Shown here: piece after piece, positions 2,803-22,883 of the stretch
How the letters are laid out: every line of letters starts with the position of its first letter
How positions within the stretch are numbered: position 1 is the first letter of the stretch
Source of the DNA: Actinomycetes bacterium
Lineage (GTDB): Bacteria > Actinomycetota > Acidimicrobiia > Acidimicrobiales > Palsa-688
NCBI GenBank assembly: GCA_021799445.1
Contig: JAJZAM010000003.1
Location: 596-64,595, forward strand
Direction of reading: 5' to 3'
DNA length: 64,000 bases
Notes under the pieces: generated by a model
Told to the model about the DNA's origin: nothing
What the model saw: only the letters and a program-made list of their open reading frames with translations
The model's database searches: none
Program-made: the position numbers and the translations under genes

Positions 2803-2834
2803 ACGACGCCAAGGAAGAACGAAGGACTAAGAAA

Positions 2835-3305: not shown

Positions 3306-3348
3306 CTCCACGGAGCCCAAGCGGAGAAGCTGATTAGAGAGAACGCAC

Positions 3349-5451: not shown

Positions 5452-5570
5452 ACCCCCTCCGGTCCACCCCAAACCGGGCTGCGGCGGTCCCCCCGCAGAG
5501 GTACTAACGTATAACACCGCGTCCACCCCCCGGCCGGGCGGCCGGCACCGCATGAGGAGCATGCCCACAT

Positions 5571-6761
<1,191 letters not shown>

Positions 6762-6764
6762 CAA

Positions 6765-6827
6765 GCCGAGCTGGCGCAGCTCCGGGAGGTTGGCTCAGGC
6801 GAGCCTGCCCGGAGCTGGCGCCTCGGC
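6765..6827 (+). terminator. long imperfect stem-loop after the tuf stop (possible U-tract-less terminator or attenuator)
   Basis: GCCGAG..CAGCTCCGGG (6765-6786) pairs with CCCGGAGCTG..CTCGGC (6808-6827), and the loop holds an inner GGCTC/GAGCC hairpin. No U-tract follows. Confidence 0.3.
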
Positions 6828-6893
6828 CAGTAGCAAAAAGCTGAACATCCGAATTTTGACAACCCGAATCCGATCTGGAAATGGAGTCCCACC

Positions 6894-7220
6894 GTGGCTG
6901 ACGCCGCCAAACAACGCATCCGTATCCGCTTGAAGGCCTACGACCACGAGATCTTGGACCAGTCCACGAAGAAGATCGTCGAGACGGTGTTGAGAACACA
7001 GGCTGTGGTGAGAGGCCCGGTCCCTCTGCCTACCGAGAAGAACCGTTACACGGTTATCCGCTCACCTCACAAGTACAAAGACAGCCGCGAGCACTTCGAG
7101 ATGCGGGTCCACAAGCGCCTCTTGGACATCGTCGACCACACCCCCAAGACGGTCGACTCGCTGCAGCGGATCGAGCTACCCGCAGGCGTCGACATCGAGA
7201 TCAAGATACAACAAAACTAA
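6894..7220 (+). CDS. rpsJ: 30S ribosomal protein S10
   Basis: 108 aa with [18 protein letters not shown]...[42 protein letters not shown] start with GGAG 8 nt upstream. Confidence 0.97.
7199..7220 (+). repeat. att core copy A (native rpsJ 3' end, codons IKIQQN-stop)
   Basis: GATCAAGATACAACAAAACTAA. The same 22-mer or close variants recur at 11786, 14778, 16412 and 17392, each next to recombinase sequence. Confidence 0.8.
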
Positions 7221-7241
7221 TGCTGTTAACTTGAGACGCGT

Positions 7242-7277
7242 TGACGTAGGGCCTCCCGTATGGGAGGCCCTACGTCG
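7242..7277 (+). terminator. 16-bp stem-loop 22 nt after the rpsJ stop (candidate U-tract-less terminator or recombinase-binding palindrome)
   Basis: TGACGTAGGGCCTCCC-GTAT-GGGAGGCCCTACGTCG, with 12 perfect pairs plus 4 flanking pairs. No U-tract on either strand. Identical copy at 11829-11864. Confidence 0.4.
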
Positions 7278-8208
7278 CGCAGTACGCCATACGGTACGCC
7301 AACGCCGGCACTCGGCGGTACTACGAGCGGCACCTGAAGGCGCTCGTCTCGTTCGCCGACGTGGACCATCCCAGGTTGCTCTCTTAGTCGGTCGTCCTGG
7401 CGCGGTGTGGGCAGGGGAGAGCGAACAACACAGTTCGCAACACGCTCTGCCGGGCGTGCACCTTGCTGCGCTGGAGTGTGCGTCAAGGCGAGGTCGATGC
7501 CGCCTTGATCGGGGCGCTGATGAGCCGGGACAATCCGCTGCGCCAGATCCCGCAGCTCTACGGGAAGGCGCGGGGTGTGCGCCCGGCGCGCTGGCTAAGC
7601 CACTCGGAGGCGTCCGGACAGTTGATCGGAGCGTGTCGGGACGGGACCGACCTCGGGTTGCGGGACGAGGCACTGATCCGGCTCGGCCTGGCGGGGATGC
7701 GGGCGGCCGAGATCTTCCGCCTACGGGTCGGCGACCTCCGTCTCCACGACGCCGAGGCCCGGATCGAGTGGGTCGGTAAGAAGCGTCGGGCCCGGGTGAT
7801 CGTGCCGGGCCCATCGTTGATCGCCACTCTCGACGCCATGTTCGATCGGTGGCAGCAGCTGCTCGGTCGGCCGCTACGCCCCGACGAGGCGGTCATCTGT
7901 TGTGGCAAGTCCGGCGCCGGCAGCGGGTTGCTCATTCCCGATCAGCCGATCGCCCAGACGTCTCGGTGCGGCAGATCGTCGCCCGCCGGGATCAACGGGC
8001 CGGACTCGGGCACGTCGCTCCTCACGACCTACGGCGAACCGCCGCCGGGCTCTTGCGCCGGTCAGTCGGCCCGGACCGGTCGCACCACTTCGACCTACTG
8101 GACATCCAGAAGGTGCTCGGCCACTCCGACCCCGCCACGACGATGCGCTCCTACCTGGACCCTCTCGATACCGGGGTGCTCGGTCGGGCGGCCGGGGTCC
8201 TGGACTGA
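7250..8208 (+). pseudogene. tyrosine recombinase (phage-integrase family), disrupted
   Basis: Frame 2 gives ..RYANAGTRRYYERHL..HPRLLS-TAG(7385-7387)-..RANNTVRNTL..LRW..RDEALIRLGLAGMRAAEIFRLRVGDL (Arg box). Catalytic box II lies in frame 1: HVAPHDLRRTAAG...IQKVLGHSDPATTMRSYLD (7849-8208 ORF). I found no start codon upstream of the N-terminal domain. That makes one in-frame stop plus one frameshift near 7945-7975. Confidence 0.8.
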
Positions 8209-8301
8209 ATGGCTGCCCGGCGGCCTCTCCGCCCTACGGGCGGCCGGCCGCCATCGTCTGGAACGGGGGTGCCTACCGGCCACTCGGCGCCGGGGTGCCG
8301 G

Positions 8302-9570
8302 TCAGGCGATCTCCCCGGTCTGGTAGTCGACCTTCGGTACCAGTCTCAGGCGCTTCCGCTCGGCCGCCGCGTAGGCCCAGGCGTAGAGACGGGCGTAGTC
8401 CTCCGGTCCCAGCCCGCCAGCGGTGAGACCTTGCCAGTACCGGCGCTTCTTGGCGTCCTCGGAGAGGGGCCGGCCCTTGGAGTGGCGGCGGAGGCCTTCA
8501 AGGCGCGTGAGTCGCCGGTTGAGCTGATGCCAGACGTCCTCGTCAACCTCCAAGAGCTCGACGGTCGGCTTGAACCCGGACTGGTAGCCGAACGTGCCGA
8601 AGTAACGGACGACGGCGCCGAACCCATCGGGCGGGACCTTCTGCTTCGCCTTCGATGCCTCGCCGGCCATGTAGGCGGCGATGGCCGCCCTTCGTGTCTT
8701 CGTGGCCACCTGGTCGTCCTTGGCGAAGAAGACGGTGCGGACGTTGACGCCGCGGCGGGCGTGATTCTCGACGGTGCCGTCGGTGACGATCTGCGACCAC
8801 CAGCGCAGCATCTCCGTCGCCGTGTCTCCACCGAAGAGCTCGCTGATCGGAGGTGTCCACCACCTTCCCTGGTGCTTGCCGTGGCGGCGGACATTCTGGT
8901 TGCCGAGACGGGTGAGCATCTGGAAGCCGCGATAGTCGGCGTCGGGCATCGACTCCGGGCCCTTCATCAGCAGGTGGAGGTGAGGTCGGCCCTCGGCCAG
9001 CTGGAACTCCTTGGACCAGAACCCGACCGGCCGTTCGCCGAAGCCGCGGTACCACGCCTCGCCGAACGCGCGGCGGTGACGCTCGAGCGTCCGGCCGTCT
9101 GGGACCCACTGCTTCCAGTCGCCCGGGTAAGTGAGCGTGATCCATAGCGGCCGGTCACCGAGCATCTCGAACGGAAGCGACAGCACCCAACGCCACATCT
9201 CGCGCCGGCTGCGCTCCGACATTCCTTTGGCTCCCCGGCCCAGGCGCTCCTTCGCTGCTTCGCGGGCCGCCTCCAGCTCCTTGGACCCGAAGTACTCGGC
9301 CACCTCGTCAGGATCGAGTGTGTCGAGGAAGAGCTCTTCGTTGTCTCGGCGTTCCAGGTCTTCGGCGGCCAGGATTTCCGCTTCCTCGTCTGGGTCGAGC
9401 CGGTTGAACTCGATCGATTCTCCAGCCTCCTCCAGGTCCTCGAGCTGGCGTACGACCTGGTCCATGAGCGGACCGAGGCGGGCCCGGCCGAACTTCGTCC
9501 GCAGTCCGAGTTGGTGACGTAGCCGCACGTAGCCGGGTGCGACCTCGACGAAGAATCGCTCACGGGCCAT
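8302..9570 (-). CDS. HUH rolling-circle replication initiator (RepSA-like, AICE/plasmid type)
   Basis: 422 aa with motif I LWITLTYP, motif II GRPHLHLLMKG (HUH) and motif III RRAAIAAYMAGEASKAK (catalytic Tyr). Confidence 0.75.
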   Translation of the reverse strand: MARERFFVEVAPGYVRLRHQLGLRTKFGRARLGPLMDQVVRQLEDLEEAGESIEFNRLDPDEEAEILAAEDLERRDNEELFLDTLDPDEVAEYFGSKELEAAREAAKERLGRGAKGMSERSRREMWRWVLSLPFEMLGDRPLWITLTYPGDWKQWVPDGRTLERHRRAFGEAWYRGFGERPVGFWSKEFQLAEGRPHLHLLMKGPESMPDADYRGFQMLTRLGNQNVRRHGKHQGRWWTPPISELFGGDTATEMLRWWSQIVTDGTVENHARRGVNVRTVFFAKDDQVATKTRRAAIAAYMAGEASKAKQKVPPDGFGAVVRYFGTFGYQSGFKPTVELLEVDEDVWHQLNRRLTRLEGLRRHSKGRPLSEDAKKRRYWQGLTAGGLGPEDYARLYAWAYAAAERKRLRLVPKVDYQTGEIA

Positions 9571-9608
9571 GATGGCCTGACATCTCCTCTCTCCTCTCGG
9601 CGCGCACT

Positions 9609-9626
9609 ATTGTCCGCATTGTGCAC
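9609..9626. promoter_or_regulatory. conserved box ATTGTCCGCATTGTGCAC upstream of rep
   Basis: About 40 nt upstream of the rep start on the minus strand. Repeated at 13740-13757 (ATTGTCCGTATTGTGCAC) upstream of the rep pseudogene. Contains a direct ATTGT..ATTGT repeat. Confidence 0.35.
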
Positions 9627-9678
9627 CGTAGCTGTGACGGGTTTAGTTGCCCCGACCTGACGTCGTTCGGCTCAGCTG

Positions 9679-9698
9679 CCGGGATTGCCGCATCCCGG
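9679..9698. other. conserved hairpin, candidate double-strand origin for the Rep protein
   Basis: CCGGGAT-TGCCGC-ATCCCGG. The equivalent position in module 2 (13848-13863) has GGGATT-GCAG-AATCCC, embedded in the shared flank CGTTCGG. Confidence 0.35.
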
Positions 9699-9755
9699 CG
9701 GCGGTCAGCGCCGATCAGGCAATCTGTTAGTGACGGCCAGACAGCGAGGTCAGCG

Positions 9756-10226
9756 GTGAGCACCTCCGACACGCATCCCTTGTTGCTGCCGCCGTCCCCG
9801 TCGTTCCGGTGCACAGCACTTGCCTGCAAGCAGAAGTACGGCGAGCGGCAGTACTGGGGCTTGCTGACCGTCAAGCCGGGTGTGCTGACCTTCGCCCCGG
9901 CGGGGACATCTGCCGCCTATCCGTTGCTTGACCGATTCTCCACGTGGTTGCTCAACCTGACCTCAGGGGTTGAGCCAAACCTGGGCACGGTCGTTCACAC
10001 CCAACCCACGTGTGCCCTTCTCCGCGTCCCTAGTGGCTACTACCGATCCTGGCTGCTGGTCACTGGCGATTCCCGATACGGAGACCCGAGCCGGGTGCTG
10101 GTCGGGCTGCGAACGAAGCACTACGTCCCAGACGCGCTCCGATGGGCTGGGTTCACGGTGACCGAGGAGCAGACAACCAAAGACGGTCTGATCGACACTG
10201 TCCGCGATCCTGGTCCAGCCACGTAG
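9756..10226 (+). CDS. hypothetical protein (start uncertain)
   Basis: C-terminal 156 codons of the 9621-10226 ORF. The region upstream of the GTG at 9756 overlaps noncoding sequence conserved with module 2. No family recognised. Confidence 0.35.
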   Translation: MSTSDTHPLLLPPSPSFRCTALACKQKYGERQYWGLLTVKPGVLTFAPAGTSAAYPLLDRFSTWLLNLTSGVEPNLGTVVHTQPTCALLRVPSGYYRSWLLVTGDSRYGDPSRVLVGLRTKHYVPDALRWAGFTVTEEQTTKDGLIDTVRDPGPAT

Positions 10227-10275
10227 CCCACGGCGACATAACGGCGCTCGTCGGACGGGATCCAGCGCCGACGCG

Positions 10276-10581
10276 ATGCTCGGCGACCTCGTCCGAAGGA
10301 GTGTTAGGGGGCATACCATCGTCGACGTGGACCCCCAGGAGGAGCGGCGTAAGAAGATCCGACGACGGGTGATCGGGTTCCGAGTCGGATTGTGGGTATG
10401 CATATCCCTGATGCTGATCGGGTTCGGAATCGCGGCTCTGCTTCACGGTGACTCGGCGGGCGCTGCGATTCTCCTGCCGTTCGGCGTCGTTGCTGCACTC
10501 GTTGCTTTTCGGACTGGGAGCGAGCGCCGAGGACACACTGTGATGACTGCTCTGCTCAGCCGTCGGGACCCTGACACCTAG
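10276..10581 (+). CDS. hypothetical small membrane protein (2 predicted TM helices)
   Basis: 101 aa with two hydrophobic stretches (VGLWVCISLMLIGFGIAALL, AAILLPFGVVAALVAF) after a basic N-terminus. Confidence 0.4.
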   Translation: MLGDLVRRSVRGHTIVDVDPQEERRKKIRRRVIGFRVGLWVCISLMLIGFGIAALLHGDSAGAAILLPFGVVAALVAFRTGSERRGHTVMTALLSRRDPDT

Positions 10582-10706
10582 CACGCAGATCGTTCAGTAC
10601 AGCGCTTCAAGCGGGCCCGACGAGGGCTTCGGTGGACCGCTCGGGATTCGGTTCGGAGTCACGCCGAGAGTCGGGCGGCCTTCCTCCAACGGAACCAGTT
10701 GGCAGC

Positions 10707-10789
10707 GAGTCGGTGATCCCGCCGCCTTTGGCGGCGCTCCGCACGGCCGCATTGAGGCGGCCGCTTGGCTCGAAGGAGGTTTGAACGGC
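10707..10789 (+). other. three-hairpin conserved element, copy R1 (candidate ncRNA or single-strand origin)
   Basis: H1 10720-10736 (CGCCGCC-TTT-GGCGGCG), H2 10745-10762 (GGCCGC-ATTGAG-GCGGCC), H3 10770-10784 (TCGAA-GGAGG-TTTGA). Homologous copies lie at 13999, 15851 and 17587 (partial). Confidence 0.55.
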
Positions 10790-10856
10790 TATGTGACTCC
10801 AGGCATTCGAGGAACCTGTTGGCGGAGTTTCGATCGGATCCGGCATCGGACCGCTC

Positions 10857-10884
10857 TTGACAAGAGTCGGGTATCCCGTACACT
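10857..10884 (+). promoter_or_regulatory. candidate promoter/operator of the DUF1778-GNAT operon
   Basis: TTGACA (10857-10862), 16 nt, TACACT (10879-10884), overlapping the palindrome-like GTACACTTGTACGTAC. AGGAGGA RBS lies 6 nt before the ATG at 10907. Same layout at 17720-17747. Confidence 0.5.
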
Positions 10885-10906
10885 TGTACGTACAGGAGGA
10901 CTTGTC

Positions 10907-11182
10907 ATGGTTACGAAAGATCACCGGAGAGAGTTGCGGCTGTCATCGAGCGATGACGACCTGATCACCGAAGCCGCGGGTCTTCTGGGTTTGTCGGTGT
11001 CCGAGTTCCTCTTGGGGCGGGCTGTTGCTGATGCTGAAGCCATCGTGGACGCCCACCGCACTGTGCGTCTGCAGGAGGATTCCTACGAGCGTTTCCTAAT
11101 GGCGCTAGACGCGCCTCCCCAGCCGGTGGCGAAGCTTGTCGATCAGATCCGCAAGAGCCGGCCCCTGAAGCACGCCGACTGA
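10907..11182 (+). CDS. DUF1778-type (TacA-like) antitoxin
   Basis: MVTKDHRRELRLSSSDDDLITEAAGLLGLSVSEFLLGRAVADAE.... ATG preceded by AGGAGGA. The stop overlaps the toxin start (TGATG). Confidence 0.8.
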   Translation: MVTKDHRRELRLSSSDDDLITEAAGLLGLSVSEFLLGRAVADAEAIVDAHRTVRLQEDSYERFLMALDAPPQPVAKLVDQIRKSRPLKHAD

Positions 11183-11688
11183 TGAAGGTCGAGCGACTCG
11201 GCGAGGAGCACGATCTCGCCGGCTTCAGCTGTGGCAACAAATCCCTCGATGACTGGTTGCGGCTCCATGCCCTGGAGAATCAGCGTCGGAACCTGTCCCG
11301 GACGTTCGTGCTGGTCGACGACGGTGGTGTCGTGGTCGGTTACTACGCGTTGTCGATGGGCGGCGTGGCCAAGGACGATCTACCTCGCACCTTGGGTCGC
11401 AGTCTTCCCAGCTACCAGATAGGGATGGTGCTGCTCGCTCGTCTGGCCATCGACGCCCGCCGCCAGAGGGAGGGGCTCGGTCGTGACCTATTGGTCGACG
11501 CCATCGTCCGTGCTGCCGCTGCCGGTCAGCACGCCGCAGCCAGGTTCATCGCCGTGGACCCGATCGACGAAACGGCCAGACGGTTCTACAGCCGTTTCGG
11601 CTTCCGGAACATCGATGGGGACCAACAAGGCCGCATGTATATGAGAATCGACGAGGCGCTGCAATCGTTTCAAGAAGTCCAAGAATGA
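11182..11688 (+). CDS. GNAT acetyltransferase toxin (TacT/AtaT-like)
   Basis: 168 aa with FSCGNKSLDDWL...GYYALS...LLARLAIDARRQREGLGRDLL...FIAVDPIDETARRFYSRFGF, coupled to the DUF1778 gene. Confidence 0.8.
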   Translation: MKVERLGEEHDLAGFSCGNKSLDDWLRLHALENQRRNLSRTFVLVDDGGVVVGYYALSMGGVAKDDLPRTLGRSLPSYQIGMVLLARLAIDARRQREGLGRDLLVDAIVRAAAAGQHAAARFIAVDPIDETARRFYSRFGFRNIDGDQQGRMYMRIDEALQSFQEVQE

Positions 11689-11739
11689 TGACTGACCGTT
11701 CGGAGTGGAGGAGGTCCGCAGCCGTGTCGGAGGAGTTTC

Positions 11740-11785
11740 GTGCAACTACGGCAGTAAATCCCTTCCAGGGATCCAGGGATCCAGG
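11740..11785 (+). repeat. conserved right-arm sequence of module 1 with (CCAGGGAT)x3
   Basis: GTGCAACTACGGCAGTAAATCCCTT then CCAGGGAT three times (11765-11788, running into the core). The arms at 14748, 16380 and 17362 carry a single copy. Confidence 0.7.
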
Positions 11786-11807
11786 GATCAAGATACAACA
11801 AAACTAA
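11786..11807 (+). repeat. att core copy B (22/22 identical to the rpsJ 3' end)
   Basis: GATCAAGATACAACAAAACTAA. Confidence 0.85.
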
Positions 11808-12792
11808 TGCTGTTAACTTGAGACGCGTTGACGTAGGGCCTCCCGTATGGGAGGCCCTACGTCGCGCAGTACGCCATACGGTACGCCAACGCCGGCACTC
11901 GGCGGTACTACGAGCGGCACCTGAAGGCGCTCGTCTCGTTCGCCGACGTGGACCATCCCAGGTTGCTCTCTTAGTCGGTCGTCCTGGCGCGGTGTGGGCA
12001 GGGGAGAGCGAACAACACAGTTCGCAACACGCTCTGCCGGGCGTGCACCTTGCTGCGCTGGAGTGTGCGTCAAGGCGAGGTCGATGCCGCCTTGATCGGG
12101 GCGCTGATGAGCCGGGACAATCCGCTGCGCCAGATCCCGCAGCTCTACGGGAAGGCGCGGGGTGTGCGCCCGGCGCGCTGGCTAAGCCACTCGGAGGCGT
12201 CCGGACAGTTGATCGGAGCGTGTCGGGACGGGACCGACCTCGGGTTGCGGGACGAGGCACTGATCCGGCTCGGCCTGGCGGGGATGCGGGCGGCCGAGAT
12301 CTTCCGCCTACGGGTCGGCGACCTCCGTCTCCACGACGCCGAGGCCCGGATCGAGTGGGTCGGTAAGAAGCGTCGGGCCCGGGTGATCGTGCCGGGCCCA
12401 TCGTTGATCGCCACTCTCGACGCCATGTTCGATCGGTGGCAGCAGCTGCTCGGTCGGCCGCTACGCCCCGACGAGGCGGTCATCTGTTGTGGCAAGTCCG
12501 GCGCCGGCAGCGGGTTACTGGTTCCCGATCGGCCGATCGCCCAGACGTCTCGGTGCGGCAGATCGTCGCCCGCCGGGATCAACGGGCCGGACTCGGGCAC
12601 GTCGCTCCTCACGACCTGCGGCGAACCGCCGCCGGGTTCTTGCGCCGGTCAGTCGGCCCGGACCGGTCGCACCACTTCGACTTACTGGACATCCAGAAGG
12701 TGCTCGGCCACTCGGACCCGGCGACGACGATGCGCTCCTACCTGGACCCTCTCGATACCGGGGTGCTCGGTCGGGCGGCCGGGGTCCTGGAC
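11786..12792 (+). repeat. about 1.0-kb direct repeat, copy 2 (partner 7199-8205)
   Basis: See copy 1. Similarity ends one codon before the int stop (TGA in copy 1, TAG in copy 2). Confidence 0.9.
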
Positions 12793-12795
12793 TAG
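11837..12795 (+). pseudogene. tyrosine recombinase, disrupted (same lesions as copy 1)
   Basis: Same in-frame TAG (11972-11974) and the same frame switch between the 12050 and 12436 ORFs. Box II HVAPHDLRRTAAG...LGHSDPATTMRSYLD is retained. Confidence 0.8.
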
Positions 12796-13704
12796 CTGCG
12801 TTCGACATCTGATCCCGATGGCCAGCGGCTGGACTCAGCCTCGAGCAGCTCGACGGTCGGCTTGAAACCGGCCCGGTAACCGAAGGTGCCAAAGTAGCGA
12901 CCGACGGTGCCGTCGGTGGTGATGTTCGACCACATTCTGAGTAGTTGATCTGCGGTCTGTCCTCCGTAGCCGCCACCGATCGGTGGTGTCCACCAGCGGC
13001 CCTGACGCTTGCCGTGTTGGCGGACGTTCTCGTTCCCGAGCCGCGTGAGGATCTGGAAGGTTAGGTAGTGGAGATCGGACATCGAGTCGGGGCCTTTCGT
13101 TAGTAGGTGGATATGCGGGCGGCCCTCGGCCAGCTGGAACCCCTTGGTCCAAAAGCCGACCGGCCGCTCCCCGAACGCCTGGAACCAGGCCTCGCCAAAC
13201 GCCCGTCGGTGACGCTCCAGGGTCGCGCCGTCGGCAGCCCATGTCTGCCAGTCGCCCGGGTAGGTGAGAGTGATCCACAGCGGCCGATCCCCGAGCATCT
13301 CGGACGGCAGGGACGGCACCCGCCGCCACATCTCCCGCCGGCTTCGCTCCGACATTCCCTTGGCCCCCCCGACCCAGCCGCTGCCGGGCGGCCTGCCTGG
13401 CTGCTTCGAGCTCCTTGGCTTGGAAGTAATGGGCCACCTCGTCGGGGTCAAGAGTGTCGAGGAACAGCTCCTCGTTCTCGCAGCACGCCTCTTCCTCGGC
13501 GACCAGGATTTCTGCTTCCTGGTTGGGGTCGAGCCGGTTGAGCTCGATCGGCTCGCCGGCGTCCTCTAGGTCCTCGAGCTGGCGGACCACCTGCGCCATG
13601 AGCGGGCCGAGTCGATCGCGGCCGAACTTGGTGCGCAGCCCCAGCTGGTGGCGCAGCCTCACGAACTAGGGGCCGACCTCTACGTAGAAGCGCTCACGGG
13701 GCAC
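12796..13704 (-). pseudogene. HUH Rep pseudogene
   Basis: Homologous to 8302-9570, with GTG..PRERFYVEVGP-TAG-FVRLRHQLG (nonsense), a frameshift between the 12835-13662 and 12792-13451 ORFs, and a deletion of the segment holding the catalytic-Tyr motif (..ITTDGTV|GRYFGTFGY..). The C-terminus is missing. LWITLTYP and RPHIHLL are retained. Confidence 0.8.
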
Positions 13705-13998
13705 GATCACACCCCGGCGACCCAGATCGTGACTGCGACATTGTCCGTATTGTGCACGATGACAGTGACGGCCTGGCGACGAGCGCACTCGGTAGGGGCC
13801 GCCCCTCAAACGTGCGGCGGATCAGCGTCTCGTTCGGAGCGGCTTCGGGGATTGCAGAATCCCGGACGCAGCTGATGCAGGTGGGGCATGCTGTGCTGTG
13901 CAGCATGGCCCGACAGGAAAGCGTCTCCGGTGGCGTCGCCTCGGCACGGTTATCGCCGGTTTAGCGGGGGCTGGCGGCGACACTGCCTATCCGACAAC

Positions 13999-14080
13999 GA
14001 GTCGGTAATCCGCCGCCTTCGGCGTCGCTTGACACGGTCGCCTGGAGGCGACCGCTTGGCTCGAAGCGAGTTTGAACGGC
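13999..14080 (+). other. three-hairpin conserved element, copy R2
   Basis: H2 is GGTCGC-CTGGAG-GCGACC (14036-14053), a compensatory C:G to T:A change relative to R1. H3 is TCGAA-GCGAG-TTTGA (14061-14075). Confidence 0.55.
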
Positions 14081-14163
14081 CTCTTGGCTGCAGGAACCAC
14101 GGGAACCCTCCGGAAGGGATTGAGCCGTGCGCCGGCGAGCGAAATGTATTACACTAATCCCGT

Positions 14164-14421
14164 GTGGAGATCCACGAGTCGGCACATCGACACGGATTCA
14201 CCGACGAGGACGTTCTACATGCGGTCGAGCATCCGGTCGCTGTGGTCGACTTCGATCCGGACTCCAACCCCCCGAAGGTCTTGGTCATTGGACCCGACCG
14301 AGCGGGGAACATGCTCGAGGTAATCATCCTTCTGTTTAACGACGACCGAATCCTTGCCGTTCATGCGATGACTCTTAGGAAGAAGTTCTACCGATTGCTC
14401 GAGGGGACACAGGGTGACTGA
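14164..14421 (+). CDS. small toxin-like protein (family not securely recognised; BrnT/DUF497-like is a guess)
   Basis: 85 aa with GTG start: HESAHRHGFTDEDVLHAVEHPVAVVD...LEVIILLFNDDRILAVHAMTLRKKF. Overlaps the downstream RHH gene by 8 nt. Confidence 0.5.
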   Translation: MEIHESAHRHGFTDEDVLHAVEHPVAVVDFDPDSNPPKVLVIGPDRAGNMLEVIILLFNDDRILAVHAMTLRKKFYRLLEGTQGD

Positions 14422-14701
14422 GAGGAAGACCTATACGACCCGGACCGGCAAGGTGCTGACCGATGCCGACATCGAAGCAATAGCCGATGAGGTCGAACAA
14501 GGCGACTACGACGTGGAGGTTCTCATGTCGAGGCGTCGACCGCGAGGCCGCCCGATGATCGGGGACGCCCCCTCGGAAGTTGTTCCAGTCCGCCTCGATC
14601 CGGCGCTTCGCCACGCGGTTGAGGCCAGAGCGGAGGCGGATCACACGACCGCCAGTGACATCATCCGCCAGGCGCTCAAGCGCTTCTTGGAGGTCGCATG
14701 A
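14414..14701 (+). CDS. ribbon-helix-helix (CopG-type) antitoxin-like protein
   Basis: 95 aa with the C-terminal RHH pattern VVPVRLDPALRHAVEARAEADHTTASDIIRQALKRFL. Confidence 0.6.
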   Translation: MTERKTYTTRTGKVLTDADIEAIADEVEQGDYDVEVLMSRRRPRGRPMIGDAPSEVVPVRLDPALRHAVEARAEADHTTASDIIRQALKRFLEVA

Positions 14702-14777
14702 GGCGGGACACCCAGTGACCGATGCCGACCATGACGCCAACGATGTCGTGCAACTATTGCAGTAGATTCCTTTCAGG

Positions 14778-14799
14778 GATCAAGATGCAGAGCAACTAA
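14778..14799 (+). repeat. att core copy C (17/22; reads IKMQSN-stop)
   Basis: GATCAAGATGCAGAGCAACTAA, preceded by the arm GTGCAACTATTG (14748-14759). Confidence 0.7.
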
Positions 14800-14807
14800 C
14801 GCTCCGC

Positions 14808-15410
14808 GTGGCGGGCGACCACGACGAGTGGTTGGCCCTCTGCGGGTTGATCGACCGGTTCGTAAGCCGCTACACCAACCCGAGGACGTCGCACCAGTAC
14901 CGGGCTGAGCTGACGGCCTTGTTCCGCCACGTCGGTGTGACCCATCCGCGACTGCTCGGCGACGCCGCCGTCAACCTGTGGGTCGCCCTGGCGAGAGCCA
15001 ACAACACCCGTCGCAACCGACTCACCCGGATCTGTGTATTCCTGCGGTGGTGCGCCCGCTACGAGTTGGCTGATCCCAGGCTCGTCGAGGAGCTGCAAAG
15101 CCGTGAGAACCTGCTGCGAGACACGCCTCCGCTGTACGGGAAGCTGCAGGGCAAGTACCCGGCTCGGTGGCTGACGCACGAGGAGGCGTACAACGTCCTG
15201 CTCGGAGTCTGTGACACCAGTGATGTTGGTCGCAGGGAGGAGTTGGTCTTGCGCCTCGGTCTGGCCGGGATGCGAGTGACCGAGATCATCCGGCTCCCCG
15301 ACGGGAGGCGATTCTTCTTCTGGACCGGCAATGCCGAGACCGGGCTCCTCGCCCTTCGCGACGAGGGCTTTCCGGTAGGGCGAGAGGAGCGCTCTGAATC
15401 GAATTGGTAG
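14808..15410 (+). pseudogene. tyrosine recombinase, 3'-truncated
   Basis: Intact N-terminal domain and Arg box (RYTNPRTSHQYRAEL...ARANNTRRNRLTRICVFLRWC...RREELVLRLGLAGMRVTEIIRL). Homology stops near 15290 and no box II (HxxR...Y) follows. Confidence 0.7.
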
Positions 15411-15498
15411 GTGCTGGTCAACTTTGGGCGTTGACTACGAGCTCCCGAACAGGCGTGCCTGGCCGGGCTGTGCACGGCGTCCCCGATACCGACGAGGT

Positions 15499-15759
15499 TT
15501 AGATCGAACCCGGGTAGAGAGTATGGGCCTCGTCCCCGGTGAGCCGCAAGGTCTGGTCTGGGCCAGCCGGCGTGTCCTCGTACAACGCATTACACCTCGG
15601 GCACCGAAGCAGGATCATCCCCCGATCCGCGTTGCTTCCGATCTGGTCGAGGTGGCCGTAGAACCGGTTCGAGTCGTCGCGGCAGTCGTCACAGCCGAAG
15701 TCCCAATCCGACTTCCGAGGCACGGGTACATCCTGCCGGAGCGCGGAGTGACGGTGCAC
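15499..15759 (-). CDS. hypothetical Cys-rich protein (start uncertain)
   Basis: C-terminal part of the 15499-15978 ORF: DWDFGCDDCRDD...ILLRCPRCNALYED (two CxxC pairs, zinc-ribbon-like). The upstream part of the ORF overlaps element R3, so I placed the start at an internal GTG. Confidence 0.3.
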   Translation of the reverse strand: MHRHSALRQDVPVPRKSDWDFGCDDCRDDSNRFYGHLDQIGSNADRGMILLRCPRCNALYEDTPAGPDQTLRLTGDEAHTLYPGSI

Positions 15760-15850
15760 TCGCGCCCACCCGTCCCGCTCGGGACCTCGCTTCCGACGTT
15801 CGGCATAGTCGAGGCGAGAGTCAGTGCCTGAGCTTCCGACTCTTGCGAGC

Positions 15851-15932
15851 AAGTCGGTGACCCCGCCGCCTTCGGCGTCGCCCCCACGGTCGCCTGGAGG
15901 CGATCGCTTGGCCCAGGACAAGTCTGAACGGT
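15851..15932 (+). other. three-hairpin conserved element, copy R3 (most divergent)
   Basis: H2 is GGTCGC-CTGGAG-GCGATC (15888-15905, one G:U pair). H3 is CCAGG-ACAAG-TCTGA (15913-15927), with pairing maintained by changes on both arms. Confidence 0.5.
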
Positions 15933-15998
15933 CACACGGGTGCGAGAACATGGGCACGCCATGCAACGAGTGGACCACCGCGCACCGACGGTGGAACG

Positions 15999-16199
15999 AT
16001 GAGGCCCCCCGAACCTCCGGATCGAATCCTGTACGACCTGGAGGAGGCGCTGGAGCTGCTGGCTGTCTTGGAGGACGCTCTTGAGGTCGTGGCCGGGAGC
16101 GACTACCTCGGTGTGGTGGCCGAGGTCGAGACCGAGGTAAGCAGACTGCACCGTAAACTGGGGTTCGATCGTCCGTCTGGAGGTGAAAATGGCCGCTGA
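15999..16199 (+). CDS. hypothetical acidic helical protein
   Basis: 66 aa (DRILYDLEEALELLAVLEDALEVV...). Overlaps the downstream HTH ORF by 11 nt. Sits where the other modules carry a TA pair. Confidence 0.35.
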   Translation: MRPPEPPDRILYDLEEALELLAVLEDALEVVAGSDYLGVVAEVETEVSRLHRKLGFDRPSGGENGR

Positions 16200-16356
16200 G
16201 CTTCTAAGAGCCCCAGAAGCTGCTCGCCGGCTTGAAATCCCGACGAAGGAGTTGCTGCGGCTCATCTACGAGCGGAAGATCCGCTACGTCATGGTGAAAG
16301 GGATCGCCCACATTCCTGACGATGCGGTGGAGGAGTACCGTGCCAAACCCGCCTGA
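16189..16356 (+). CDS. small helix-turn-helix protein (excisionase/MerR-like)
   Basis: 55-aa ORF, too short for the supplied track: MAAELLRAPEAARRLEIPTKELLRLIYERKIRYVMVKGIAHIPDDAVEEYRAKPA. GGAGGTG sits 5 nt upstream of the ATG. Confidence 0.5.
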   Translation: MAAELLRAPEAARRLEIPTKELLRLIYERKIRYVMVKGIAHIPDDAVEEYRAKPA

Positions 16357-16411
16357 GATAGCCGGTGGCGAGCCGGTCCGTGCAACTACGGTTGCATTTC
16401 CCCTTTCAGGG

Positions 16412-16433
16412 GATCGAGATACAGCAGAACTAA
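16412..16433 (+). repeat. att core copy D (19/22; reads IEIQQN-stop)
   Basis: GATCGAGATACAGCAGAACTAA, preceded by the arm GTGCAACTACGG (16380-16391). Confidence 0.7.
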
Positions 16434-16467
16434 CCGCGCGGTACTAGCGGGCCGCTGGTCCGTGAGC

Positions 16468-16665
16468 TCTGCTTGCGCTACAACAACCCGAACACGCGCC
16501 GTCAGTACGAAACCGAGCTGGCGGCGCTCGTCGCGTCTGCCGGCGTGTCCCCCCAGCTTCGTGACCTACTCGGCCGTGCTGTGCTGGGTGGGCCAGGCTC
16601 GGGCCAACAACACCGTCCGCAACCGGCTGTCCCGGGTTTGCAGTTTCCTGCGCTGGTGCGTCTGA
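16468..16665 (+). pseudogene. tyrosine recombinase N-terminal remnant (frameshifted)
   Basis: LRYNNPNTRRQYETELAALVASAGV in one frame, then ..SAVLCWVGQARANNTVRNRLSRVCSFLRWCV-stop in another. Matches the N-terminal domain of the 14808 gene. Confidence 0.65.
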
Positions 16666-16785
16666 TCGCCGAAGCGATCCCACTTCACATCGAGTCCATA
16701 CAGGAGCAGAGCGAACCGCTCCCCACCCCGGCGGTGGTCGCCTCGATGAAAGTGAGGGTCACACTGACCTGACTGAATAGTGGGC

Positions 16786-17049
16786 ATGCCCCGGGGTGAG
16801 CTTCTTCCACGGGATCGCCATCTAACGTACTGGAACGAGCGCGACCATCCCGTCCCGCACTTTCATGCCGTCCAGGCAGGGCGAAGAGCGTTGGTCTCCA
16901 TTGATGGTGTAGTCCTCGCCGGGGAGATCGACGCCCGGGCGCTAATACGGGTGACGAAGTGGGCTGGCCTTCACCGGGACGAGCTGCTCACCAACTGGGA
17001 GCTGGCCCAGGACAGAAAGCCGATCCGTCCGGTCACACCTCTGCCATAA
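16786..17049 (+). CDS. DUF4160-family protein
   Basis: ..YWNERDHPVPHFHAVQAGRRALVSIDGVVLAGEIDARALIRVTKWAGLHRDELLTNWELA; an alternative GTG start lies at 16780. Confidence 0.7.
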   Translation: MPRGELLPRDRHLTYWNERDHPVPHFHAVQAGRRALVSIDGVVLAGEIDARALIRVTKWAGLHRDELLTNWELAQDRKPIRPVTPLP

Positions 17050-17050
17050 C

Positions 17051-17329
17051 ATGGCCTCCGTGAGTGGGACCTACCTTCCGGTTGTCGTCGGAGTAGCAGT
17101 GATCCGCGACCATGTCCTCCGCCTACTGTTTGATGACGGCACTGTGGGAGACGTCGACTTCTCCTCCGAGGAGTGGACAGGCGCCCTCGCAGCGCTAGGC
17201 GATGCGAAGTACTTCGGCCGCGTTCGGGTGGATGCCGAGGCTGGAACCGTCACCTGGCCCAACGGCGAGGACCTGGCCCCTGAGCCCCTCTACGAGCAGG
17301 CCCGAGCCCACCCGCTCGCTGCCGTCTGA
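17051..17329 (+). CDS. DUF2442-family protein
   Basis: VIRDHVLRLLFDDGTVGDVDFSSEEWTGALAALGDAKYFGRVRVDAEAGTVTWPNGEDLAPEPLY; starts 2 nt after the DUF4160 stop. Confidence 0.7.
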   Translation: MASVSGTYLPVVVGVAVIRDHVLRLLFDDGTVGDVDFSSEEWTGALAALGDAKYFGRVRVDAEAGTVTWPNGEDLAPEPLYEQARAHPLAAV

Positions 17330-17391
17330 GGAGGCCGAGATGACCGAGGAGCCGGAACTTCGTGCAACTATGGAAGTAGATCCTCAGAGAT

Positions 17392-17413
17392 GATCAAGAG
17401 ACAACAGAACTAA
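17392..17413 (+). repeat. att core copy E (20/22; reads IKRQQN-stop)
   Basis: GATCAAGAGACAACAGAACTAA, preceded by the arm GTGCAACTATGG (17362-17373). Confidence 0.7.
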
Positions 17414-17467
17414 ATCTCGATTCCTTTAGTAACCTTGCGATCCTTCCCTGTGGCTAGATTCTATTCG

Positions 17468-17520
17468 AGCCTTCACTCACCGCTACAGCAACGCCGGTAC
17501 CCGTAGGCAGTACGAGACCT
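17468..17520 (+). pseudogene. tyrosine recombinase N-terminal remnant (very short)
   Basis: Reads ..FTHRYSNAGTRRQYET.., matching RY(A/T/N)N..TRR.YE in the other copies. Nothing further is recognisable. Confidence 0.4.
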
Positions 17521-17586
17521 CCCCGGCCCGACAGCAGCACGCAAAACTGTCGCTCTCCTCCACGGCCCAACCCGACCGGCAACACC

Positions 17587-17653
17587 ACGGAACCAGCGGA
17601 CTGCACCAGGACGATACCCGGCGGCCGCTTGGCTCGAAGGAGGTTTGAACGGC
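17587..17653 (+). other. three-hairpin element, copy R5 (internally deleted)
   Basis: Shares CACGGAACCAG.. and GGCGGCCGCTTGGCTCGAAGGAGGTTTGAACGGC with R1. About 34 nt are missing, covering H1 and the 5' arm of H2. Confidence 0.45.
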
Positions 17654-17719
17654 GATGCGGTTCGAGGCATCGAAGAACCTGTTGGCGGAGCTTCGATCGG
17701 ATCCGACATCGGACCACTC

Positions 17720-17747
17720 TTGACAAGAGTCAAGAATCCCGTACAAC
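17720..17747 (+). promoter_or_regulatory. candidate promoter of the second DUF1778-GNAT operon
   Basis: TTGACA, 16 nt, TACAAC; GGGAGGAG RBS before the ATG at 17770. Homologous to 10857-10884. Confidence 0.45.
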
Positions 17748-17769
17748 TGTCCGTACGGGAGGAGTTGCC

Positions 17770-18045
17770 ATGGTTGCGAAAGATTACCGGCGGGAGTTGA
17801 GGTTGTCGTCGAGCGACGACGACCTGATCACCGAGGCAGCAGGTCTTGTCGGCTTATCGGTGTCGGAGTTTCTCTTGGGGCGGGCTGTTGCTGATGCCGA
17901 AGCTATCGTGGACGCCCACCACACTGTGCGTCTGCAGCAGGATTCCCGCGATCGTTTCCTGCTCGCGCTCGACTCGCCTCCCAAGCCGGTGGCGAAGCTC
18001 GTCGATCAGATCCGAAAGAGCCGGCCAATCGTGCACGCCGACTGA
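17770..18045 (+). CDS. DUF1778-type (TacA-like) antitoxin
   Basis: MVAKDYRRELRLSSSDDDLITEAAGLVGLSVSEFLLGRAVADAE...; close paralogue of 10907-11182. Confidence 0.8.
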   Translation: MVAKDYRRELRLSSSDDDLITEAAGLVGLSVSEFLLGRAVADAEAIVDAHHTVRLQQDSRDRFLLALDSPPKPVAKLVDQIRKSRPIVHAD

Positions 18046-18818
18046 TGCAGGTCGAGCGACTCGGCGACGAGCACGATCTCGCTGGCTTTAGCTGTGGCAA
18101 CAAGTCTCTCGATGACTGGTTGAGGCTCCATGCGTTAGAGAACCAGAGCCGCAACCTGTCCCGGACCTTCGTCTTGGCAGACGACGGTGGTGCGGTCACC
18201 GGCTACTACGCCTTGTCGATGGGTGGAGTGGCCAAAGACGAGCTTCCGCGCCGACTGGGTCGCGGGTTTCCCGGCTACCAGATCGGGATGGTGCTCCTTG
18301 CCCGTCTGGCCGTCGATGCCCGCCATCAGGGGGAAGGACTCGGCCGTGACCTACTGGTCGACGCCATCCTTCAGGCCACTGTGGCTGGTCAGCATGCTGC
18401 TGCCAGATTCATCGCCGTCGACCCTATTGACGAGTCCGCGAGAGCTTTCTACAGCCGTTTCGGTGTGGTGCGACGGACCCGGGCCAACCTGGAGCGCGTG
18501 GCGGCCGCTCTCAAAGACCTCAACGCTCGCCTCCGGGTGGCCGGCATGACTGATGAGGACGCCATGGAACTGCCAGTTCGGATCGATCCGACGACGCTGG
18601 ACCGTGCTGGCATGCTCACTTGGATGACCGACGCGGGGCCGTCGGCATGGCTAAACACCGGTTGGCTGGGCTGCTCTACGATGGAGTCTCAACCTCAACG
18701 AGCGCCAAGCTTTGGTCGCGGCACTAGTCAGACTCCCGACTGGCGCCTGTGGTGCGACGGCAGATCCCTCGGGCCGTGGTCTTCCGACGCACATGATGGG
18801 CCTGCTCGGCGTTCATAG
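18045..18818 (+). pseudogene. GNAT toxin truncated at its C-terminus and fused to unrelated sequence
   Basis: Residues 1-141 parallel 11182-11688 up to ..ARAFYSRFG. From about 18470 the ORF reads VVRRTRANLERVAAALKDLNARLRV..., unrelated to the GNAT C-terminus (FRNIDGDQQGRMYMRIDE.. in the intact copy). Confidence 0.6.
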
Positions 18819-18860
18819 GCGGACTAGCCGGTGCGGAGAGCTGCGCTTTAGGCTGATCTC

Positions 18861-19526
18861 ATGGAGCAGGCGCTGGAGGAAATTCGCGACGGCGATACCG
18901 TTTGGCGTTTCGACGTGTCGTTTCTCACCTCGACGTGGAACTGCACCTGGGGTCGGGGATGTCTTGGGATAGGGCCCGAACCAGCGCCCGAGCTCGGACT
19001 GGGCTGCTGCTCAATAGGCGCGGATCTAGGCGACGAGGACGAAGCCCGGATGATCTCGGCGCTAGCGGCGACTCTCGACCGGTCGGTCTTCGAGCGTTAC
19101 GGCGAAGCACAAGACGGTGGGATCTTCAGCGACGCCACGCGCCTGCACACCCGAGTGGTCGACGGGGCGTGCATCTTCTTGAACAGGCCTGGCTTCGCCG
19201 GAGGGCCGGGATGCGCCTTGCACGTCGCCGCGCTAGCAGCAGGCGAACCCCCCACGGAGTGGAAACCCTCCGTGTGCTGGCAGCTGCCCATCAAAGTCGA
19301 CTGGGAGCCGGCCCTTGGGGGAGCCGAAATCGCGACCGTACGCCGCTGGAGCCGCGACGACTGGGGCGAGGATGGAAAAACCATGGCCTGGTGCTGCACC
19401 GAGGGGAGCCTCGCCTACGACGGTGAGACCACGGTGGTCGACTCGCTGCGAGCCGAACTCTCCGAGCTGGTCGGCGCCGAAGTGCTCGCAGAGCTGCGCC
19501 GCAGGATCACCGCCCGAGAGGACTGA
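18861..19526 (+). CDS. conserved Cys-rich hypothetical protein
   Basis: 221 aa with WNCTWGRGCLGI, GCCSIGADL, DGACIFLNRPGFAGGPGCALH and SVCWQLPIK (putative metal/Fe-S-type Cys clusters). Family not named with confidence. Confidence 0.55.
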   Translation: MEQALEEIRDGDTVWRFDVSFLTSTWNCTWGRGCLGIGPEPAPELGLGCCSIGADLGDEDEARMISALAATLDRSVFERYGEAQDGGIFSDATRLHTRVVDGACIFLNRPGFAGGPGCALHVAALAAGEPPTEWKPSVCWQLPIKVDWEPALGGAEIATVRRWSRDDWGEDGKTMAWCCTEGSLAYDGETTVVDSLRAELSELVGAEVLAELRRRITARED

Positions 19527-19530
19527 CCTT

Positions 19531-19824
19531 CTAGGAGGGCTTCTCCTCTACTTTCACGCCCCTCCAGAAGGCGACCCTCCCCGTGATCGACTTGGCAGCC
19601 TCGCTGGGCGAAGGGTAATACCAGGCAGCGTCAACATTCGTATTGCCGTCCACCTCAAGGCTGTAATAGCTGGCTTGGCCCTTCCAGGGGCAGCGAGAAG
19701 TCGTGTCGCTCTTTCGTAGATATTCGGAAGCGACCGCTTCGAGAGGAAAGTAGTGGTTTCCTTCGACTACGACGGTGTCGTCACTTTCGGCGATTATGGC
19801 ACCGTTCCAGGTTGCTGTCACCAT
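19531..19824 (-). CDS. DUF427-domain protein
   Basis: 97 aa with WNGAIIAESDDTVVVEGNHYFP...CPWKGQASYYSLEVDG...AAWYYPSPSEAAKSITGRVAFW. Confidence 0.7.
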   Translation of the reverse strand: MVTATWNGAIIAESDDTVVVEGNHYFPLEAVASEYLRKSDTTSRCPWKGQASYYSLEVDGNTNVDAAWYYPSPSEAAKSITGRVAFWRGVKVEEKPS

Positions 19825-19960
19825 AGTAAGAGGAACCCGTTCGGCGGAGGGTTTCTTCCGGCGCGATGATCCCGTCCGCGACGCCCGACCGCCGGGCCGT
19901 CGCTACCATCTTCACAGGCCAGCGAAAGCAGCCGGTCTGTATATAGGCGGGGAGGCCGGC

Positions 19961-21813: not shown

Positions 21814-21858
21814 GAAGGCGACCTTAGCCTGCGCTGACAGCGACAGGTGGGAGAGCGT

Positions 21859-22131: not shown

Positions 22132-22198
22132 CGGCGTCTCGGCGATTCGACCATTCCGTCGAGGGTCTGCTGGGGGAGTGACTCCATGATCCATCCTC

Positions 22199-22795: not shown

Positions 22796-22883
22796 TCCAA
22801 CTTAACCGACCCAGCCATGTACTATACTTTGAAAGCACAAACTATTTGTATCTTAGAACTACTGTGTATCGAAGAGGGTAACT
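22796..22883. promoter_or_regulatory. AT-rich divergent promoter/operator region (MarR / YceI)
   Basis: This 88-nt spacer is much more AT-rich than its surroundings and contains TATACT (22822-22827) as a -10 candidate for the plus-strand gene. Confidence 0.35.

Follow-up and report, generated by a model that had tools for sequence, protein, structure and literature searches.

The 3′ end of rpsJ, the gene for ribosomal protein S10, is the starting point of a head-to-tail array of five related, non-identical small integrative elements at positions 7199-18464 of a 64,000-nucleotide stretch of Acidimicrobiia DNA (contig JAJZAM010000003.1 of assembly GCA_021799445.1), the whole of which is called the window below. 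Our preferred explanation, to which we assign a probability of roughly 90%, is that incoming circular elements recombine with the rpsJ 3′ end through a site in which an arm, a short core and the integrase gene follow one another. Repeated site-specific integration at this gene had been proposed in an interpretation of the same DNA made without database searches (the sequence-only reading), and that proposal gained support from occupied sites, empty sites and a single integrase clade in other genomes.

The window has a G+C content of about 65%, and its closest relatives are metagenome-assembled genomes (MAGs) of Acidimicrobiia. Upstream of the array, fusA (3349-5451) and tuf (5571-6761) precede rpsJ (6894-7220, forward strand), which lies directly downstream of tuf and encodes a 108-aa S10 recognised by PF00338 at 125 bits. 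The last 22 nt of rpsJ (7199-7220, forward strand), GATCAAGATACAACAAAACTAA, encode IKIQQN-stop and form core copy 1, the attL core, which has 27% G+C compared with 65% genome-wide and aligns with the cores of 20 other rpsJ loci. Four more copies follow on the same strand, exactly as the sequence-only reading had placed and scored them to the base: 11786-11807 (22/22), 14778-14799 (17/22, IKMQSN-stop; repeat family D8), 16412-16433 (19/22, IEIQQN-stop) and 17392-17413 (20/22, IKRQQN-stop). Shuffled sequences gave an expectation of 0 matches for the copies at 11786, 16412 and 17392 on the rpsJ strand, and the 17/22 copy at 14778 was the sole further match with five or fewer mismatches across both strands of the whole 64 kb, none appearing in 30 shuffles. 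Within the window the core is confined to this locus, and elsewhere it stands at rpsJ ends next to integrases (20 of 79 loci), as had been predicted. The copies show 10 substitutions in all, with frame and TAA stop kept throughout; this part of the earlier description stood, whereas its statement that the changes fall mostly in third codon positions did not, as about half of them do.

A conserved GTGCAACTA arm comes before each of the later core copies, and a pseudogene or remnant of a tyrosine integrase comes after it. In agreement with the arm already recognised before each non-native core, the arm sequence GTGCAACTAYKG (repeat family D9) occurs exactly four times, at 11740, 14748, 16380 and 17362, with 0 occurrences expected, and each lies 34-46 nt upstream of such a core. 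The right arm (P arm) of module 1 (11738-11785, forward strand) consists of GTGCAACTACGG followed by three tandem CAGGGATC units touching core 2 (families D9 and D11), and the P arms of modules 2, 3 and 4 occupy 14746-14777, 16378-16411 and 17360-17391. The arm motif, GTGCA...GCAC and often a small palindrome, is probably a binding site for the integrase or an accessory protein. The number of CAGGGATC units varies among arms, with three in tandem at 11763-11786 of the window, two in the related locus L001 and one in the other arms; the triple repeat could have arisen by slippage, or recombination that recurred at the core's left edge could have left it as a footprint.

Integrase-like sequence lies past all five cores, so that the tyrosine-recombinase gene or remnant announced for each was found. 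The segments at 7289-8205 and 11876-12792 both correspond to query residues 1-306, those at 14868-15296 and 16473-16746 to residues 2-145 and 1-89, and a 13-aa trace, RYSNAGTRRQYET, remains after core 5, near 17470-17520. Remnant length falls with distance from rpsJ, from 306 and 306 through about 145 and about 89 to 13 aa. The repaired integrase, used as a query, retrieved 421 homologues, nearly all annotated with PF00589 and hundreds of them from Acidimicrobiia, which upholds its assignment to the tyrosine recombinases, and P0001 matched a PHROG integrase family at 7.9e-25. Split by its frameshift, the module-1 copy scores 24.2 and 27.9 bits in its two PF00589 halves (cut-off 27.1). In an alignment of 29 sequences, the catalytic residues R138, H246-D-L-R249 and H279...Y289 are invariant or nearly so, and the window translation keeps the catalytic motifs LAGMRAAE, PHDLRRT and GHSDPATTMRSY. 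By sequence, the window elements are tyrosine-integrase integrative elements. No translatable integrase is present in the window, in that copies 1 and 2 carry an in-frame TAG (7385-7387 in copy 1) and a 1-nt deletion (between 7959 and 7960), as read from the translation and from alignment with the uninterrupted L001 integrase, and copies 3-5 are truncated. As every integrase is dead, what remains today is a fossil array, unless the enzyme comes in trans.

Occupied and empty sites in other genomes

A profile scan with the integrase, taking one genome per species, recovered 79 loci, and in 20 of them, in other Acidimicrobiia, fewer than 100 nt separate a tuf-rpsJ end from the integrase gene that follows it. 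No stop interrupts the matched region in at least nine of these 20 rpsJ-adjacent integrases. In L003, L004, L008 and L010, an element of ~4-5 kb lies between direct repeats that copy the rpsJ end, and rplC follows about 250-420 nt after the arm and the right repeat. Single elements between rpsJ and rplC comprise an integrase, a rolling-circle-type Rep and small cargo, and the pairing of the integrase with a Rep of the HUH type is conserved across loci. The cleanest case is L010, where this layout is joined by a second unit: rpsJ is followed by an uninterrupted 316-aa integrase, an intact 463-aa Rep, cargo and an arm with core, then by the remnant of a second integrase with another arm and core, and lastly by rplC. 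Arrays with at least two integrase copies also occur in L001, L002, L005, L007, L010 and L012.

Empty sites were sought by scanning metagenome contigs for the predicted junction of rpsJ body, core and native tail. In 10 of 11 contig matches, rpsJ is followed after about 300 nt by rplC-rplD with no integrase, and these ten contigs provide the unoccupied arrangement that had been expected in relatives. The sequence past the stop codon at the empty sites is the same as that past the right-hand repeat in the occupied L003 and L008 loci. Judged by sequence, this comparison of occupied with empty sites is the classical relationship of attB to attL and attR.

The two ends of an occupied site also reveal which of them encodes the S10 terminus. 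In L003, the element-side rpsJ end is ATACAGACCGTCTAA (QTV*), whereas the displaced native end, about 300 nt before rplC, is ATCCAGAACGTCTGA (QNV*), as at empty sites. Since the element-side tail differs from the displaced native tail, the element specifies the last S10 residues, which matches the element-supplied replacement 3′ end of the sequence-only reading. Across genomes, S10 ends in QNV, QTV, QQN, QQS, QTA, QTN, QAN or QSA.

Among element-sized contigs, no excised circle was found: L091, at 4401 nt, proved to be an attL junction, two different elements meet in L092 (4482 nt), and neither contig has a terminal overlap. In P0005 (from L092) and P0008, gene callers extend the N-termini of integrase open reading frames (ORFs) through core and arm in another frame (...CNYGCISPFRGSRYSK...); these extensions are an annotation artefact, yet they flag internal array junctions.

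In a neighbour-joining tree, one clade unites all the integrases that adjoin rpsJ or lie within rpsJ-type arrays. With 40-50% identity, the sister lineages lie directly past other protein genes, which were named from ORF C-terminal sequence alone: rplS (L19; n = 8 loci) and genes for SCP2-domain, DinB-like, uvrB-like, sigma-factor and ilvA-like products (sister-lineage loci L019, L020, L023, L025, L027, L043, L044 and L055, as well as L021, L028, L053, L056, L052, L045 and L033). A transfer RNA (tRNA) gene lies within 600 nt of the integrase in 2 of 48 checked non-rpsJ loci. On these sequence comparisons, the integrase group as a whole seems to specialise in protein-coding genes, at the 3′ end. 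An origin of the site from a tRNA remnant was considered and rejected, since ARAGORN found no tRNA or transfer-messenger RNA (tmRNA) gene in the window and tRNA genes are near so few of the non-rpsJ integrases.

The five modules and their putative replication protein

Module 1 (7221-11785, forward strand) is the least decayed of the five, is missing from genomes of the L005 type and is presumably the newest arrival. Just past core 1 lies a 34-nt G+C-rich hairpin (7243-7276; inverted repeat I1), which has a second copy at 11830-11863, is also found in L005 and L001, and occupies the place where the integrase N-terminus would be in this subfamily. The integrase pseudogene (7289-8208, forward strand) is followed by an intact gene for a 422-aa Rep, a putative HUH-type rolling-circle replication initiator (8302-9570, reverse strand), and by two forward-strand ORFs of 201 and 101 aa (9621-10581), which had no match in Pfam, NCBIfam, PHROG or PADLOC and the second of which resembles a membrane protein. 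A non-coding element with two hairpins (10696-10799, forward strand; repeat families D6 and D7) and an invariant CGCTTGGC at its end precedes the cargo (10907-11688, forward strand), composed of a TacA-like antitoxin (10907-11182; PF08681 at 64 bits) and a toxin matching GNAT families (11182-11688).

The remaining modules, all on the forward strand, are progressively reduced. Module 2 (11808-14777; families D3 and D4) comprises an integrase pseudogene (11876-12795) with the same two lesions as the module-1 copy, a reverse-strand Rep pseudogene (about 12835-13700) that is 78% identical to the module-1 Rep and has its C-terminus deleted, and a cargo of a faint DUF4258-like protein and a ribbon-helix-helix protein (14164-14701). 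Module 3 (14800-16411) retains the N-terminal half of the integrase alone (14808 to about 15300), a reverse-strand ORF without assigned function (15499-15978) and an excisionase-like helix-turn-helix protein (16183-16356; TIGR01764 excisionase at 24.8 bits, and HTH_17). Module 4 (16434-17391) holds an integrase remnant of about 65-89 aa (16473-16746) together with DUF4160 (16780-17049) and DUF2442 (17051-17329) proteins, the same pair as in the intact L010 element. Module 5 (17414-18464) is the most decayed; besides the integrase trace, it has a partial non-coding element (17600-17663), a TacA gene (17770-18045) and a GNAT toxin gene cut at 18464 by a deletion of ~190 nt, so that the right end of the array is the deletion junction 18464/18465.

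The TacA/TacT-type layout, in which DUF1778/TacA directly precedes a GNAT acetyltransferase, occurs at 10907-11688 and again at 17770-18464 (PF08681 at 64 and 59 bits), and these pairs are predicted toxin-antitoxin cargo. PADLOC returned no match for the cargo, and therefore we do not claim a role in anti-phage defence.

The 422-aa protein contains the motif GRPHLHLL, and its H197, H199 and Y300 are invariant in the alignment. PF23343 scores 24.2 bits for the window copy (cut-off 27.8), 44.3 for L003 and 30.4 for L008, and the L003 Rep additionally gives a faint Pfam signal for RepSA of pSAM2. Its AlphaFold2 model has a pLDDT of 86.6, and the top Foldseek matches, to the Rep of adeno-associated virus (AAV) and to Helitron nucleases, are all HUH but weak (E about 1e-2, TM 0.15-0.4). 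In tblastn searches, the protein matched 4-12 kb plasmids of Streptomyces, Rhodococcus and Couchioplanes at 33-41% identity over about 90-100 aa around the HUH motif, and a PDB sequence search, NCBIfam and PHROGs returned nothing. Motif, homology and modelled fold together support its assignment as a putative HUH rolling-circle-type Rep.

Further copies of the two-hairpin element lie at 13989-14090 and 15840-15942, in addition to the partial one in module 5, and nhmmer found 14 copies, confined to the closest element subfamily. Its G+C-rich hairpins are conserved with modest covariation, and a CACGG...CCGCTTGGC block in it is invariant; Rfam, scanned over 6500-19000 and 34900-35500 at permissive thresholds, gave nothing. 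We infer that the element is a candidate replication origin for Rep. More broadly, it may be either a Rep origin or a regulatory site, and the putative Rep might double as a relaxase, with the two-hairpin element as its origin.

Turnover of the array and competing accounts

In the integration model that we favour, the attachment core (ATCAAGAT[A/C]CAG...stop) overlaps the last rpsJ codons and the stop. A complete element, of ~4-5 kb, consists in order of the core and int, a divergent putative HUH Rep, a small cargo that is usually a toxin-antitoxin-like pair, and a right arm whose GTGCA...GCAC-type motif lies about 25-30 nt ahead of the core. Strand exchange probably takes place within ATCAAGAT, where we put the crossover because this is the longest block invariably common to left and right copies. 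The product would be rpsJ-core-[int...arm]-core-(old rpsJ tail), an order by which the element would supply the working last 2-3 S10 codons and the stop, the old tail being pushed downstream. Later arrivals would enter at the rpsJ-proximal junction and displace older units, which would then decay, and this displacement would account for the observed gradient of integrase decay.

Comparison of close relatives shows that occupancy differs among them. L117, a 97-kb contig from the Joint Genome Institute (JGI), equals window positions 1-16761 at 99.98%, modules 1 and 2 included, and like the window it has modules 1-5. In L005, positions 9909-16593 align to window 11786-18464 directly after rpsJ, modules 2-5 being 97.8% identical, and nine contigs of the L005 type have rpsJ followed by modules 2-5 with module 1 absent. 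L005 also keeps, at 16594-16785, the toxin end, the P arm (TTCGTGCAAC) and a degenerate sixth core (14/22) that the window lost in its ~190-nt deletion. L106 has a different module, with HicB-like cargo, ahead of module 2, and L118-L120 and L122, with a Tuf identical to that of the window and a match of ~97% overall over 7.8 kb, have yet another first module. In these last four, the rpsJ end has, through a point change, CAATAG in place of CAACAA/CAG, which yields a 106-aa S10 ending in ...IKIQ, and the old AACTAA stands just past the new stop. The differing first modules in related genomes, together with the arrays found elsewhere, indicate that the site has been used repeatedly and recently.

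Three local features of these relatives are recorded here. At 9921-9938 of L005, the core nearest rpsJ has a right half that, together with the 10 nt behind it (CAGCAGAACTAACCGCGCGGTA), fits the core 4 junction of the window (16424-16442) and not module 2's own junction, which L106 and the window keep (compare window 7211-7226); by sequence, this patch looks like the trace of an earlier integration-excision cycle or of a conversion. Further downstream in the array, L118 has an IS21-family transposase pair (12212-14500) and L113 a DruA-like (Druantia) gene (13982-14845).

A serious, if less probable, alternative is that homologous recombination, not the integrase, mainly grows and shrinks the array, the integrase having acted just at the distant origin of each module. 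Module 1 would then have been gained or lost by RecA-type exchange across the 1 kb of integrase homology, and whole arrays would move between species via the conserved flanking ribosomal genes. One argument for it comes from modules 1 and 2, which are 100% identical over 7199-7929 (731 nt), share both lesions, and show 10 differences from there up to 8206; the sequence-only reading had the 22/22 core right, but about 1 kb is shared and not just 22 nt. The stop and the frameshift are common to modules 1 and 2, L005 and L106, and the alleles of the 3′ part of the integrase are mosaic among module 1, module 2, L005, L106 and the uninterrupted relative L001. A further argument is the break in identity at rpsJ between window and L005, from 77-95% over the upstream genes (223-7198) to 94-99% over modules 2-5 and the next 4 kb (11786-22595), which suggests that this segment was recently exchanged between diverged genomes, presumably by homologous recombination. 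Its right-hand limit did not emerge from exact look-up of RplC and of a 67-aa DUF6186 protein, which gave just MAGs and contigs of the window's own type. What recombination leaves unexplained is the presence of non-homologous modules between precise cores (the module 1 and 2 Reps are 78% identical and the cargos differ), and likewise the repeat-bounded elements and empty sites in other genera. We therefore regard recombination as complementing integration by incoming elements, not as replacing it.

Several observations weigh against integration as we propose it. Modules 1 and 2 and L005 carry an identical pair of disabling lesions, and therefore the integrase of module 1 is not simply its own inserter, and either gene conversion or an integrase acting in trans must be added to the explanation. 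The window has no intact integrase, so activity cannot be shown here, and homologous recombination between the 1-kb repeats could equally have deleted module 1 from L005-type genomes, which lack it. In assembled contigs, a circle or attP is indistinguishable from an internal array junction, and the contigs with the arm-core-int order, L092 and L001, are tandem junctions. The signals for Rep in the window copy are weak (24 bits; Foldseek E about 1e-2). Finally, the right end of the array is missing, with no core near rplC and 17 kb of ordinary genes between.

The simplest account of the shared lesions is that the module-1 element came with its own integrase, which was later homogenised with the adjacent dead copy by gene conversion; integration of module 1 by an integrase supplied in trans is a possible alternative. 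A single-crossover origin of module 1 was rejected, as it would yield hybrid integrases and not two copies both bearing lesions 575 nt apart.

The interval between rpsJ and rplC is larger than the array. The sequence-only reading had put the insert at 11 kb, a figure that did not survive, as rplC (35378-36022, forward strand), the next gene after rpsJ at empty sites and about 300 nt from it there, lies 28 kb away here. Between array and rplC, about 17 kb (18465-35377) of ordinary-looking metabolic and regulatory genes encode a dioxygenase, MBL-fold, MarR, YceI and beta-lactamase-fold proteins, SDRs, an acyl-CoA dehydrogenase, a thiolase-like protein, an ADP-forming CoA ligase, FxsA and an M1-like peptidase, and this region lacks integrases, core copies and any shift in G+C. 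MAGs and contigs of the window's own type have the block next to rplC, with coverage starting at about 22-25 kb, and in L005 the array is followed by the block's first 4 kb. The block is inside the rpsJ-rplC gap but not demonstrably part of the elements. A degenerate right-hand core upstream of rplC was not detected at five or fewer mismatches, and alignment showed just the distal leader to be conserved.

A stem-loop lies before rplC at about 35283-35313 (GCGCTCCGC...GCGGAGCG), with a second hairpin at 35323-35348. The stem-loop is conserved across Acidimicrobiia, empty sites included, with a few compensatory changes and no Rfam family, and it may be a ribosomal-protein leader or attenuator of the rplC operon. 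Scans for consensus promoters and terminators at the rpsJ end and upstream of rplC found nothing. Based on the conserved 300-nt spacer and stem-loop, insertion is probably tolerated through rplC's own upstream control region, which would include its own promoter.

Two other explanations are far less probable than recombination. In the first, one ancestral insertion was duplicated in tandem segments that then diverged, and rpsJ is no hotspot; this would fit the single-orientation, head-to-tail layout and the near-identical 1-kb segment in modules 1 and 2. Against it, the cargos differ in kind (TacAT; DUF4258-like and ribbon-helix-helix; excisionase-like helix-turn-helix; DUF4160 and DUF2442), one pair of modules varies in identity from 100% down to about 65%, independent elements occupy the same site in many genera, empty sites exist and related genomes have differing first modules, so that duplication is effectively refuted. 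An assembly artefact, in which strain variants were collapsed or chained across the 731-nt perfect repeats and modules 1 and 2 are not truly tandem, seems to us just as improbable. Short-read MAG contigs of the window's own type (L120, L121 and L123) do break right after rpsJ, and the region is therefore hard to assemble; nevertheless, L117 reproduces window 1-16761 at 99.98%, though L117 could be the window's own source, L106 independently has a module ahead of module 2, and tandem junctions occur in many unrelated assemblies.

An integron-like platform, in which one recombinase captures promoterless cassettes bounded by the 22-nt repeats, has short regular repeats, one orientation and small toxin-antitoxin-type cargos like those of chromosomal integrons in its favour, but it is effectively refuted and close to negligible, given that no unit is without an integrase remnant of its own and as many as three have a Rep or the conserved non-coding element, that a stand-alone integron integrase and attC-like imperfect palindromes are lacking, that intact relatives are self-contained int-Rep elements, and that NCBIfam integron-integrase models score 19 bits against cut-offs of 265-435.

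Significance and relation to known systems

With these elements, rpsJ joins the short list of ribosomal-protein genes that serve as attachment sites, and a very small integrase and Rep element family is defined in Acidimicrobiia, here almost wholly from MAGs. The locus is a sensitive marker of recent divergence, as genomes with identical Tuf and a ~97% overall match differ in their first module. It also offers a clean natural case of island stacking in which decay grows with distance from the target gene, and of a mobile element that dictates the C-terminus of an essential protein. We know of no established genetic tools for Acidimicrobiia, and matched sets of attP, attB and integrase are candidates for site-specific integration vectors, L010 providing the two arms, an integrase gene free of interruptions and, inside a universally conserved gene, a core of 22 nt. 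In its widest form, the picture would be that of the rpsJ-rplC junction as a fast-turnover landing pad, at which a dedicated integrase clade, one of several sisters specialising in ribosomal and other housekeeping protein genes (at their 3′ ends) and not in tRNAs, deposits minimal int-Rep elements that leave toxin-antitoxin-type cargo and rewrite the last 2-3 residues of S10 (NusE) to QNV, QTV, QQN, QTA or an end truncated after IKIQ, with arrays passing between diverged genomes via flanking translation genes; taken as a whole, we consider this unlikely. If the variable S10 tail or the post-stop hairpin that the element supplies did alter S10/NusE function or downstream operon expression, the elements would tune core machinery.

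The closest parallel in target choice comes from streptococcal elements, both integrative and conjugative (ICEs) and integrative and mobilizable (IMEs), which use the 3′ ends of rplL, rpsI and rpmG (PMC4701971). In both systems, a tyrosine integrase acts on an essential ribosomal-protein gene at its conserved 3′ end, which is rebuilt from element sequence with little or no change to the protein. Some streptococcal IMEs also carry rolling-circle-Rep-like proteins. In contrast, the rpsJ elements are much smaller (~4-5 kb), with neither a conjugation nor a recognisable mobilisation module, and their genomes have a 300-nt spacer with a conserved stem-loop between rpsJ and rplC. Moreover, their host belongs to another phylum, and rpsJ is absent from the 18 targets of the streptococcal elements (PMC4701971). 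No searchable paper names rpsJ as an attachment site, in accordance with the earlier remark that it had not been described as a hotspot, and large island databases (PMC12424338) may hold undescribed instances.

The integrative and conjugative elements of actinomycetes (AICEs) share the phylum and a modular set of tyrosine integrase, sometimes excisionase, and rolling-circle initiator. They differ in size, about 9-24 kb compared with ~4-5 kb for the rpsJ elements, which also have no Pif or Kor genes. FtsK/SpoIIIE-type Tra was absent from module 1 and from the selected element ORFs of L003, L008 and L010 that were scanned, and with this defining transfer gene missing, the rpsJ elements are not AICEs. 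An element of about 4-5 kb has little space for such a gene. The vast majority of tyrosine-integrase AICEs target tRNA genes (PMC2440964, PMC3218068), whereas the rpsJ-type integrase group lies behind protein-coding genes, with a tRNA adjoining 2 of 48 non-rpsJ loci. The instability of tandem arrays is mentioned in the same literature (PMC3218068).

The small rolling-circle plasmids of actinomycetes have a homologous Rep around the HUH motif; they are annotated as free and have no integrase, whereas the rpsJ elements are chromosomal, with an integrase and att arms. Tandem accretion of genomic islands at one att site is familiar from tRNA and tmRNA sites and from elements of the ICESt1/ICESt3 type. 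As in such arrays, related integrases stack at one site at rpsJ, internal junctions are attP-like, older units decay and units recombine with each other; the array described here differs in consisting of five minimal int-Rep units behind a ribosomal-protein coding gene and in its clear monotonic decay gradient. The system is thus of a known kind, combining 3′-end integration with tandem accretion, and what is new is the target gene and the minimal element family that uses it.

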